A stretch of 19,863 bases of DNA. It comes from Candidatus Heimdallarchaeota archaeon (GTDB lineage Archaea; Asgardarchaeota; Heimdallarchaeia; Heimdallarchaeales; Heimdallarchaeaceae). The stretch is from the NCBI GenBank assembly GCA_018238545.1, contig JABCTC010000056.1:1-19863 (forward strand), in the 5' to 3' direction. Of this stretch, positions 2,522 to 15,991 are shown in pieces (position 1 is the stretch's first letter; each line of letters begins with the position of its first letter). The notes under the pieces were generated by a model. It did not search any database and was not told where the DNA came from. It saw only the letters and a program-made list of their open reading frames with translations. A program made the translations under genes and the position numbers.

Positions 2522-2560
2522 TTTTTAAATCAATTCTCTGATATATAGTTGAAAGACATG
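2522..2560 (+). promoter_or_regulatory. Putative archaeal promoter (TATA-like TTTTAAAT) plus leader TTGAAAGACATG
   Basis: TATA-like box about 28-35 nt upstream of ATG 2558; the 12-mer is identical to the one before the radA-like gene. Confidence 0.45.
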
Positions 2561-3028
2561 CTTACAATAACTGAATCAGTTCTCGTTAGAGAGCTAGCTA
2601 TTAAATGGGAGGAAGTTGGTCTACAAGTTGTTAAAGAGCTTGTAGTCCCCATTATTGACAATATTTACTATGATAATTATCTGGAAGGGAGAGATTCTAT
2701 TCGTATTGACCTTGCAGCATATGATCCTCATAATGATAAAATTATTTTCGTTGAAGCTGAGAATGGTCTTTATCTCCCTCACCCTCAGATTTATTTGCCT
2801 TTTTGCAATGAATTGTATGTTTTGTGTCCTGAAGACAATTCATCATTTAGAGATGAACAAGTAGATTGGAGCAAAAAGGAGGGGATAGGGATAATTGAGA
2901 TGAATGAAGAAAGGAACATCTCTACATCCCTTGGAGCAACTTCAAGGAAGATTTATCCTGCTGTGGAAGCTTACGTTAAATCTAGGCTTTTCAAAAAGAT
3001 CGAGAAGGAGAGGAAGAAAAATTGTTAA
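2549..3028 (+). CDS. PD-(D/E)XK restriction-endonuclease-fold protein (MmcB/Holliday-junction-resolvase-like); probable start ATG 2558
   Basis: Helix with E (TESVL), then RIDLAAY...IIFVEAE, a Q-x-Y motif (HPQIY..FCNELYVLCP) and GIGII. The catalytic Lys position holds Glu. Confidence 0.6.
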   Translation: MKDMLTITESVLVRELAIKWEEVGLQVVKELVVPIIDNIYYDNYLEGRDSIRIDLAAYDPHNDKIIFVEAENGLYLPHPQIYLPFCNELYVLCPEDNSSFRDEQVDWSKKEGIGIIEMNEERNISTSLGATSRKIYPAVEAYVKSRLFKKIEKERKKNC

Positions 3029-15600: not shown

Positions 15601-15991
15601 AATCAAAGTAGAAAACACTGAATCAGAGTTGATAATAATTTTACTTGATGGTGAAAATAGAAGCTTAGCTAACAAGGAAATAGAGATACAATTCATAAGA
15701 GAGAATGGAACAGTCATTTGGAAAGAAAAACGAGTTACAGACAACCTAGGTAAAATTGTCATTAACAAACTCGAGATGAACTTAACAGATGATGTGTTCG
15801 AGTTAAAATTTGTTTTTGAAGAGGAGACGTATTATGAATTCGTTGAAAGAACTATAAGTGAAACCTGGTGGTTTATTATAGAAAAAGGTGATTGGTCTCT
15901 AATCTCGATAATATTACTTATATTTGCTATTCCAGTGGTAGTAGGATCAGTAATTTTAAGAAAGTTCAGTAAAAACAAGCGACAAAAATAG
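9659..15991 (+). CDS. Giant membrane-anchored surface protein/adhesin with ~18 Ig-like repeats
   Basis: N-terminal signal peptide (MRKISFILFFVLILPLPIG). T(D/N)xxG and FxGxxxYxxS motifs recur about every 93-100 aa. C-terminal TM helix followed by a basic tail (RKFSKNKRQK). Many N-x-S/T sequons. GGAGAGGAG lies upstream. Confidence 0.85.
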   Translation: MRKISFILFFVLILPLPIGHSIIEGIIPESNNVTEPVYTISLDDLDIEIISQSIQIIPSSNNQEQSDSSSPNPLHLLIPATYMSYSSLIGNSSLVQKGDAVQLTAGTEFELIGRFPVDRGDHHWYDLVTTLDDNQPSTGTFSDTKIAVAFTLPVSIDYMAFSFNISQVLASMSSSQLDFYLAENLTDYQTNYLMKSEISVHTYNFHKNNPSSPLMFIYRDHPLSTEVNTSLIAGNTYYAILSSTGDFNLQYSDDASGVDTNSVYLYNSGLWSEQSAVDIQFAVYQGSQTQTSAVDSSGESFLLYDSSSSVDRLHRISSSYFDSSNTYDSSSDYWDLDIIDSIIPEFLVLTCPPTAEYSDSIDLVAKVENLYHQSLENENVSFYASENNSTWLLVDDALTNSDGFATVEYLITEASGTVYFKAVNNLLTSYAETIREKETVVISVPEVNTIYGNKINSANLATYELSAQLLDNDNSPLVAVMVVFYMSGSLDPIFVMTDATGTATTSTGFIDWNAGYYPNSFWISVSLDSDLYDYSSTIYGDISIAPNNITLETTTSLNNYWNDPLNVSLGFLDGEDDYLPNINYELLIYSERTGINTSLGIFSTDQYGYGNHYFASEFFDPGEYVLYVRVSSINYYNFEQAISLSVIEDQANISVNLQYNENYEYNSNFEIEVYVTDHLGQPLENITVRIFISLPNYFDFWFDHIYLTTDETGYASCTIILNLEAGEELNIMITTEDFSEDGIVYYLAAVPHITYVTCIPASSSFVQLVDINCVNQETISITGQLVSGSNGIANETLTITILGQQYIVVTDMNGYFVLEYFVPSGGNIAVDFLFDSSTNYISSNASINLVCASCDLIITTADIHQETSQSVTFVVHVESIYGTYPEGLTVVFSWYDGQSWIFINTAVTNSSGYAILSPSMSFPLGEWLWKAEVQSSIDWSSATSVSNLKIGFFTATNIVTSGTVEFSEYLEVLVYVQDEYSNPLEVEVSFYLDGIFIGSATSNSSGIASLVWLVDFVPQTYTLTAVIDQFGMYLDSSDDTSLIITKTESYISSDDVFIYYNESAEVQIYLFSSLGALSSEYLTLNISGVLTDQIITNSSGWGVWVIPSIQPGIYSLIITFEGNSYFLASSLSITLQINKMPTDILLNASSQDYTPNYQISGYIQDLFMQPIEGLDVILRINGSVYQIVTSEVTGYYLFIVSLQPGTHIIEISFEGNQDYLSSSTSKTVYIWKIDTSVQGTINWVDTTLTMQAYLEDSANQPIEGAIVWFYLNGSYVGQNITDSSGHTLLEVTGVAPGVYEIVIMFEGTSIFEGSSQLIVLEQSKAQTEISVLITEGIYAITSTTAEIHLTSEGAPLEGKLIMLTIDGVQYFGLTNATGYVLITLDILLEAGLYNMELDFSGDVLYSAVSFNQLVYVAKAETSIELSFYYDNYQPMLGGVLNSILSLSGEQIHIYINGTYLKSLSIDALGEFLTSLGLAPGLYNILVKFDGNRNNLGSEKTLEVNISKTPTQLSGNVDVYHEYGEESSFIVLLTDTLSNPIQANLIITIDGNYFATVSTNSSGYAVITLTSDIIVDNHEIIIEFQGDSTFYQSSLSVNLTVKYPIELVSIEFDAASYGEEGYISGMIESFSGLLDQVTITMYLDGSPLQTLTDSTGYFLFAISQSLDSGTYTIILRIDESAEIFFFEYQFMIEREKASYDVSLTAQTVVYNAGSSITGYVTVLGAISSNTELEVFIDGVLLGNLYTDSLGNFIIPALWLSHYPGEYSLTILVLSSGTNIQDTLKEFSFIVHKDSIEVTIYWASNVVEDQLQLQVYIKNSQGEALELFYFTISINGIDYLSVTDELGRGLIYYDLSAAGDLIIHFTSSSTVIYNYTEETFSIEVQKCASLITIPTNFTYYDSTMGLKVVLTSVNGNPIVNTHVLILIDSQEILVTTNSHGIFYLDLSSYEIGQYSINFQFEGSDDYIKLFLTEVISIKKQQTQIKVENTESELIIILLDGENRSLANKEIEIQFIRENGTVIWKEKRVTDNLGKIVINKLEMNLTDDVFELKFVFEEETYYEFVERTISETWWFIIEKGDWSLISIILLIFAIPVVVGSVILRKFSKNKRQK

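Follow-up and report, generated by a model that had tools for sequence, protein, structure and literature searches.

What are four DNA-processing proteins doing directly ahead of a giant surface protein in an archaeal genome? The question is raised by the window, the whole stretch of 19,863 nucleotides (nt) analysed here, which is the entire contig C60 (JABCTC010000056.1) of a 3.63-Mb Candidatus Heimdallarchaeota genome that is 91.8% complete and has close relatives bearing the names Heimdallarchaeota or Heimdallarchaeaceae. It carries five open reading frames (ORFs), all on the + strand, which encode a nuclease-like protein (2549-3028), a motor-dead protein of the VirB4/HerA fold, hereafter the ATPase (3022-6171), a Ski2/Hel308 paralogue with a SWIM finger (6176-8353), a RadA paralogue (8427-9644), and a 2110-amino acid (aa) surface protein with immunoglobulin (Ig) repeats, hereafter the adhesin (9659-15991). 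On balance, we hold it probable that these genes belong to an inducible programme of cell-contact DNA exchange and recombination that is chromosomal, conserved across Asgard archaea, and undescribed, and of which the window would be the recombination half. No account of such a system was found in the literature covered, which excludes subscription papers.

A nine-gene unit in Heimdallarchaeaceae

The ORFs adjoin one another with a 7-nt overlap and gaps of 4 nt, 73 nt (103 nt if counted to ATG 8457, the likelier start), and 14 nt, reproducing the five co-oriented, tightly joined genes of the original prediction, an earlier reading of this DNA; the unit itself is larger. From aligned upstream DNA, the true starts are probably ATG 2558 for the nuclease and ATG 8457 for radA. 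The full unit in Heimdallarchaeaceae comprises nine genes, of which the window's five are about half. In relatives, four genes stand upstream of the nuclease gene and encode a 610-aa surface protein, a protein of approximately 480 aa with two transmembrane (TM) helices (2-TM protein), a 218-aa polytopic protein, and a RadB-like protein. In the window's genome, these four sit at C96:3140-8256, separated by insertions. The earlier remark that no multi-pass membrane channel is encoded here therefore holds for this split copy only and fails for the unit, whose multi-pass proteins lie on C96.

The nuclease and ATPase genes are adjacent in all 20 congeners possessing both, and the adhesin gene stands directly behind radA in 17 of 17 congeners, which argues that the cluster is non-random. 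The neighbourhood is kept, and homologues scattered without conserved synteny, the outcome that the original prediction had named against itself, were not observed. The gap between helicase and radA is often filled by unrelated inserted genes in relatives. The complete genomes G053 and G054, the latter being Ca. Heimdallarchaeum endolithica, keep all nine genes in a changed order, with the two surface genes exchanged; near the cluster, they also hold an XPD-like pair and another M50-like gene. The adhesin was retained through this reshuffle, so its association extends beyond the window's genome. The core is near-universal in the family (26 of 29 genomes). Purifying selection acts on all five window genes in comparison with close relatives, the ratio of non-synonymous to synonymous substitution rates (dN/dS) being 0.03-0.07 for the four enzymes (nuclease, 0.03-0.06; ATPase core, 0.02-0.03) and 0.13-0.16 for the adhesin; these values rule out decaying pseudogenes.

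Two genes that lie in the cluster in G053 and G054 are detached in the window's genome: an M50-like gene (L205:5182-6826; C43:81181-82825) and a 312-aa gene (L231:6620-7423; C94), a paralogue of which bears the promoter motif described below. Second copies of the 218-aa membrane gene occur in G053, G054, G052, and G024 (L137/L164, L138/L165, L166, L167), and two of them adjoin a second paralogue of the surface protein.

A promoter motif shared by surface and recombination genes

The DNA before the nuclease gene (2510-2535, + strand) and before the radA-adhesin pair (8408-8433, + strand) has in common a pyrimidine run, a TATA-like box, and AATT, approximately 32-38 nt ahead of the ATG. When scored with a matrix trained solely on the radA promoters of relatives, radA ranks 2, the nuclease 3, the 2-TM gene 26, and the 610-aa gene 102 among 3231 ORFs. 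The copy before radA, in the gap where a promoter had been placed, is kept in 15 orthologous spacers. Among family loci with radA excluded, 26 of 31 system operon leaders score at least 10 versus 10 of 119 other genes with free upstream space, a comparison whose p-value is overstated because the genomes are kin and not independent; eleven housekeeping control genes score 4.6 or less. Of 943 ORFs taken from other lineages, those ranked 1, 2, and 9 belong to the cluster of genome G024, a member of another family; there, the motif precedes surface, Hef, and ATPase genes.

A scan for sigma-70 promoters and terminators, a promoter type wrong for an archaeon, did not rise above shuffled sequences. 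A strict IUPAC pattern of the motif gave 3 hits per genome versus 2-5 for a backwards control, a count that is no evidence, and only its positions before two giant surface-protein genes of genome G001 were used. The motif suggests one regulon of surface and recombination genes. Three TFB paralogues are present in the genome, on contigs C7, C48, and C94.

The motor-dead ATPase and its predicted membrane tether

The ATPase is composed of an N-terminal domain (aa 1-228, encoded at 3022-3705), a core (aa 238-600), a winged helix (aa 626-727), and a helical tail. Pfam and NCBIfam gave nothing useful for the core. In the structure model (mean predicted local distance difference test, pLDDT, 64), aa 238-603 match VirB4 (4ag5) with Z 21.4 and a root-mean-square deviation (rmsd) of 3.5 Å over 332 aligned residues, and the core matches DndH (Z 22.2), HerA (Z 18), and TrwB (Z 16.9). 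The position of Walker A reads AGDKKTRE and Walker B reads IYIDDAE; GDKKTRE or a similar degenerate loop is found in 23 of 23 aligned rows.

The N-terminal domain, folded alone (pLDDT 76), is modelled as an alpha/beta sheet domain whose best match is residues 211-392 of TrwK/VirB4 (7o42; Z 6.4, rmsd 6.7 Å, 153 aligned), and the top six Foldseek rows are all TrwK (E 0.03-0.07). The model hints at a likeness to the second half of the VirB4 N-terminal domain, which is weak alone and collinear with the match of the core (TrwK 399-801). On these models, the protein is a VirB4 relic, conserved though motor-dead.

In other lineages, a pan-Asgard 2-TM family precedes the ATPase or is fused to it. A profile comparison by hhalign left the ATPase N-terminal domain and the 2-TM family unlinked (2% or less). 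The complex model of the 2-TM domain from C96 with ATPase aa 1-228 scored 0.67 versus 0.00 for the best control, where the mark is reached by 58 of 80 solved pairs and 2 of 110 mismatched pairs, and where the score may partly reflect likeness to solved structures because each partner is one half of a split VirB4-like domain. Between runs, at least 71% of contacts agree, the partner pLDDT is at least 77, and the interface uses the invariant R83 and D185. The 2-TM protein is thereby predicted to dock on the N-terminal domain and to tether the ATPase to the membrane. The 218-aa family aligns (hhalign 93%) with a second cluster family, one member of which keeps HELSH and matches Peptidase_M50, while the rest have lost HExxH; searching PDB sequences with the M50-like alignment returned no match. 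Nothing useful was obtained from Pfam and NCBIfam for the 610-, 492-, and 218-aa proteins.

An active-looking, TM-anchored VirB4/CedB-like ATPase (GMIGRGKT) is encoded elsewhere in the genome, beside the ribosomal L1/L10/L12 genes (C86:19830-22712; L204:5831-8713), and has relatives in 39 of 66 genomes.

A nuclease-like protein, and a helicase and RadA distinct from the housekeeping copies

The first protein is of the PD-(D/E)xK nuclease-like type with ExE replacing ExK; E9, RID (D54), ExE (69-71), and HPxxY are invariant in 13 sequences. Pfam and NCBIfam searches gave no useful match for it, and by our reading, it is MmcB-like.

The helicase is Ski2/Hel308-like and falls under every Hel308 cut-off (160 bits versus the equivalog cut-off of 1200 bits), with motifs I, II, and VI intact and motif III reading SSS. 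Its SWIM finger (aa 526-539, approximately nt 7751-7792) recurs in 18 of 19 cluster-linked helicases checked and is missing from housekeeping Hel308. Long branches meet in the helicase tree, which gives no resolution, and a single clade is not claimed.

The window RadA reaches 228 bits against a cut-off of 259 bits and has intact Walker A, Walker B, and catalytic Glu; in it and its orthologues (15 of 15), FxxA is replaced by FxSL and the L1 Arg (equivalent to R235 of RAD51) by Leu. Together with relatives from two sister families, it forms a clade of its own (100/100), apart from the three other RadA-like genes of the genome, which lie on contigs C62, C71, and C119. The housekeeping Hel308 stands behind MCM on C114, and the canonical nurA-herA-mre11-rad50 operon is found at C73:92484-99063. 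Whether canonical counterparts exist separately had been left to be checked; they do, and these copies exclude that the window radA and helicase are the sole housekeeping ones. Domain and motif analysis also upheld the earlier identification of four non-canonical DNA-processing proteins and a membrane-anchored Ig-repeat protein.

Contig C119 also carries a broken radA-paralogue copy, frameshifted and truncated (L064:3121-3814; C119:23121-23814). Its start is closer to the copies of G011 and G012 than to the radA of its own genome, and it adjoins a gene like the helicase-radA insert of G015; it is a fragment that was either transferred or mis-binned. On C114 (L206; C114:67924-70584), another HerA-family gene, with no match to GxxxxGKT, follows a gene that is possibly NurA-like; MCM and hel308 are close by.

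Surface proteins and other carriers of the motif

The adhesin has Big_1/Big_3/MG4 domains and hydrophobic segments at both ends, namely, a signal-like N-terminus and a C-terminal anchor. It is single-copy in the genome, which together with its dN/dS leaves the earlier alternative of surface-gene diversification unsupported for the adhesin, and diversification of this gene was rejected.

Motif ranks 1 and 4 belong to proteins of 2351 and 2213 aa, in which a part paralogous to the 610-aa ectodomain is followed by five TM helices, and which diverge fully after approximately aa 890. Genome G000 has four paralogues of the 610-aa surface protein, and giant surface proteins are encoded at L227:5958-13013 (C102), L228:3538-10179 (C106), L253:2470-8233 (C4), and L256:4194-6926 (C49), with relatives at L247 and L248 (G001) and L249-L251 (G049). 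The giant family also occurs in G001, G004, and G049, and the motif precedes several copies (G000, G001, G049). The tails, up to 1500 aa long, are swapped between carriers and genomes; in G001, for instance, identity is 75% over aa 1-909, after which the sequences are unrelated. Some tails have PD-(D/E)xK-like motifs, and the tails are predicted to be cytoplasmic, behind the five TM helices. No family match for the variable tails was obtained in Pfam, NCBIfam, or PADLOC, no immunity gene is evident beside the swapped-tail genes, and these genes were not found in G053 and G054 with the query used, where the core is intact.

A stand-alone tail gene (C45:1611-4331; L230) carries the motif, and a stand-alone or broken tail module lies at L254:3890-6144 (C86); both are homologous to the giant tails of G001 and G049. 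The motif is also borne by multi-copy TnpB-like ORFs of approximately 640 aa with a weak TnpB/Cas12f TNB domain (L238:4220-6163, C82), further copies of which lie on C71, C72, C102, C106, and C49. Genes similar to AMP-binding enzymes and to LuxC acyl-CoA reductase bear it too (L232:4556-5716, C43; L236:4397-5827, C103), and in G053 and G054, LuxC-like and AMP-binding-like genes (L096, L097) lie no farther than approximately 20 kb from the cluster; they possibly serve the synthesis of a signal or lipid.

Neighbouring genes

Homology with the intact cluster of relatives starts at approximately position 2505 of the window. The place of the four upstream genes is occupied by an insertion sequence (IS) transposase with an integrase core (rve) and an AAA_15/21 ATPase (16-2070, - strand), which are outside the system. 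Behind the adhesin gene lie a short ORF with an acidic stretch (16064-16203) and an alpha/beta pair of 2-oxoacid:ferredoxin oxidoreductase (16317-18412), a conserved downstream neighbour in the genus and G049. The sfsA gene at 19327-19686 is curtailed to 119 aa, compared with 238 aa in G001, and adjoins a repeat that recurs on C62.

Range across Asgard archaea

The nuclease was found in 67 of 399 Asgard genomes with a broader profile and the 218-aa protein in 46 of 399; these phylum searches are a first-look filter on many incomplete genomes, in which blanks do not equal absence. The ATPase has strong matches (E below 1e-60) in seven families and weak ones in many more. The weak matches inspected are mostly Walker-less and clustered with subsets of SWIM-Hel308, RadA/RadB, XPD, Hef, FEN1, M50-like, and surface genes; a few are active paralogues in other settings. 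Related clusters, in which a dead ATPase accompanies varying subsets of helicase, RadA/RadB, XPD/Hef/FEN1, and membrane or surface genes, are present in at least 15 further Asgard families, and most Asgard families searched hold them. A family-only profile had confined the ATPase to Heimdallarchaeaceae, a view overturned by broader profiles. A homologous-protein search returned nothing beyond the family, and by hhalign, most small lineage-specific genes are unlinked to each other.

Comparison with known systems

Ced of Sulfolobales and Desulfurococcales and Ted of Thermoproteales are chromosomal VirB4-derived DNA-import systems, domesticated type IV secretion systems, beside DNA-processing genes (PMC9905601; PMC11823120), and CedB and CedD carry complementary parts of a VirB4-type N-terminal domain (bioRxiv 10.1101/2024.09.27.615246). 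The Asgard cluster resembles Ced/Ted with Ups pili in being chromosomal and VirB4-derived, with TM, VirB4-like N-terminal, and ATPase domains; it resembles CedB/CedD in splitting the N-terminal domain over two proteins, Ted in having a ParA-like gene beside the clusters of families f10 and f11, and Ups/Ced in what appears to be one regulon spanning contact and DNA handling. It differs from Ced/Ted in that the ATPase has lost Walker A, neither a CedA/VirB6 channel nor a CedA1/VirB2 pilin is recognised, contact is apparently made by giant Ig proteins and not by type IV pili, and the cluster has its own RadA, RadB, SWIM-Hel308, XPD, nuclease, and dead M50-like peptidases. The system would work like Ups plus Ced, yet it is not filed as a Ced/Ted member because its motor is inactive and a channel and pilin are not recognised.

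Like the HerA-NurA-Mre11-Rad50 operon, the cluster places an FtsK-HerA fold next to nuclease and recombination genes, but it lacks the HAS barrel, NurA, Mre11, and Rad50. The Shu complex consists of the SWIM protein Shu2/SWS1 with Rad51 paralogues (PMC5727457). Similarly, a CxC-xn-CxH SWIM protein is encoded here beside RadB-like and RadA-like proteins, whereas the Asgard SWIM is inserted in a Hel308 helicase and the Shu complex lacks a membrane part.

With polymorphic toxin and kin-recognition systems, such as TraA/SitA of myxobacteria, the associated giant genes share a constant carrier and swapped C-termini, some bearing nuclease-like motifs, but the tails are predicted to be cytoplasmic, have no adjacent immunity gene, and stand outside the conserved core. 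Anti-phage partner sets (Hachiman HamA; MADS MAD1-8; Nezha Sir2) were incomplete, with generic helicase matches and a weak match to mad8 (E 1e-5), the Walker-less HerA-like protein of MADS; anti-phage profiles gave nothing for the nuclease or the membrane proteins.

Proposed function and its alternatives

The DNA-exchange programme that we favour starts from what is observed (gene composition, conservation, a VirB4-type fold in which Walker A is lost, fused homologues, a promoter motif in common, and surface paralogues with swapped tails), and from this we infer contact, DNA passage, and recombination of partner DNA. A dedicated promoter class would turn on surface, membrane, and recombination genes together in response to a presumed trigger and factor, the latter possibly being one of the three TFB paralogues. 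Judged by anatomy, contact with a partner cell would be made by the giant Ig protein together with the 610-aa surface protein. The 2-TM protein and the ATPase N-terminal domain would rebuild a VirB4-type N-terminal domain by their predicted binding and tether the dead ATPase, which may act as a scaffold that grips DNA or partners with its winged helix. Protease-dead M50-like proteins would occupy the membrane part; pumping would need another motor, such as the active ATPase at C86:19830-22712, or DNA may come via a cytoplasmic bridge. By the functions of their families, the nuclease, SWIM helicase, XPD/Hef, and RadB would prepare strands and load the dedicated RadA, which would recombine the incoming DNA.

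Several results weigh against this programme. Walker A is absent from every cluster ATPase examined, other families included (no GKT), and because of this loss, the ATPase cannot be a DNA pump. The coupling of cell contact or DNA acquisition to recombination, as first proposed, is partly supported, in that the promoter motif is common to surface and recombination genes. The active ATPase on C86 lacks the motif (rank 1615). The Heimdall 2-TM protein is linked to the pan-Asgard family only transitively, through an intermediate lineage (hhalign 14% and 94%), and the 218-aa protein appears from its sequence to be M50-peptidase-like, a fold not known to pass DNA. In the 91.8%-complete genome, a TrbL search gave no match for TrbL/VirB6, and none was obtained for ComEC and DprA of natural competence (controls positive in 10/14 and 11/14 genomes). 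Of the ORFs of at least 70-80 aa in the nine-gene set, none resembles a small pilin; unassigned small TM ORFs occur in other families. The RAD51 R235D mutant is defective in DNA binding (PMC10990931); having lost the L1 Arg on which RAD51 depends to bind DNA, the window RadA may not be a complete strand-exchange protein. Trees did not show the cluster RadAs of different lineages as one clade.

Repair or recombination between genome copies within one cell is an unlikely but serious alternative, in which the dead VirB4 would anchor to the membrane a Shu-like (SWIM plus RadB) and RadA machine that serves the repair of forks, gene conversion, or segregation. The surface proteins would then belong to a stress response, e.g., aggregation without DNA transfer. 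It accords with the repair enzymes that are the most conserved partners (XPD, Hef, FEN1, RadB, SWIM-Hel308), with the pairing of SWIM and a Rad51 paralogue as in the Shu design (PMC5727457), and with a dead motor and no recognised channel, but it leaves unexplained why two surface proteins stay in the cluster through rearrangement, why the N-terminal domain is VirB4-type and not HerA-type, and why swapped-tail surface paralogues stand under the same promoter, while housekeeping repair genes lack the motif. Contact-dependent recognition of self and non-self, or defence, seems more doubtful. Here, surface receptors would sense neighbours or viruses, nuclease-like tails would kill or block, and helicase, nuclease, and RadA would process foreign DNA. 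The four 610-aa paralogues of G000, several with long swapped C-termini and some of these PD-(D/E)xK-like, suit such a role, as does the Walker-less HerA-like protein of MADS; the core, however, is single-copy, slow-evolving, and near-universal in the family, unlike patchy defence islands, it remains intact in G053 and G054 where the swapped-tail genes escaped the query used, and neither an immunity gene nor a PADLOC match accompanies the tails.

Gene conversion that swaps the tails of surface paralogues would account for the tail swapping and for the motif before the stand-alone C45 tail gene. It is nonetheless very improbable as the function of the cluster, with an adhesin that is single-copy and constrained (dN/dS 0.13-0.16), a core that persists where the paralogues were not found, and a membrane-tethered VirB4 scaffold for which it has no need. 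Least credible of all, and already largely refuted, is the view that repair genes and surface genes with no relation to one another share a loose neighbourhood: inserts between helicase and radA are frequent, gene order varies between families, and the present copy is split, yet the set comes together again in other orders, each transcription unit is preceded by one and the same motif, and homologues are fused.

Implications for Asgard archaea

Asgard archaea are the closest prokaryotic relatives of eukaryotes, and the way in which they exchange DNA matters for understanding how eukaryotic sex and the recombinases specific to meiosis arose. The cluster offers a defined set of genes, a promoter motif from which a regulon can be predicted, and a predicted membrane link. 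The motif before swapped-tail genes and TnpB-like ORFs is what would be expected if selfish elements exploit a mating state. A wider proposal, which we regard as possible but clearly short of probable, is that an inherited, separately regulated, mating-like programme is common to Asgard archaea, with adhesion and self-recognition at the cell surface, a membrane-tethered VirB4-relic scaffold, a dedicated recombinase, a SWIM helicase, and a nuclease, and with selfish surface effectors and TnpB-like elements wired to its promoter. If this is true, regulated sex with a specialised recombinase would have a prokaryotic forerunner in the very lineage that stands nearest to eukaryotes.

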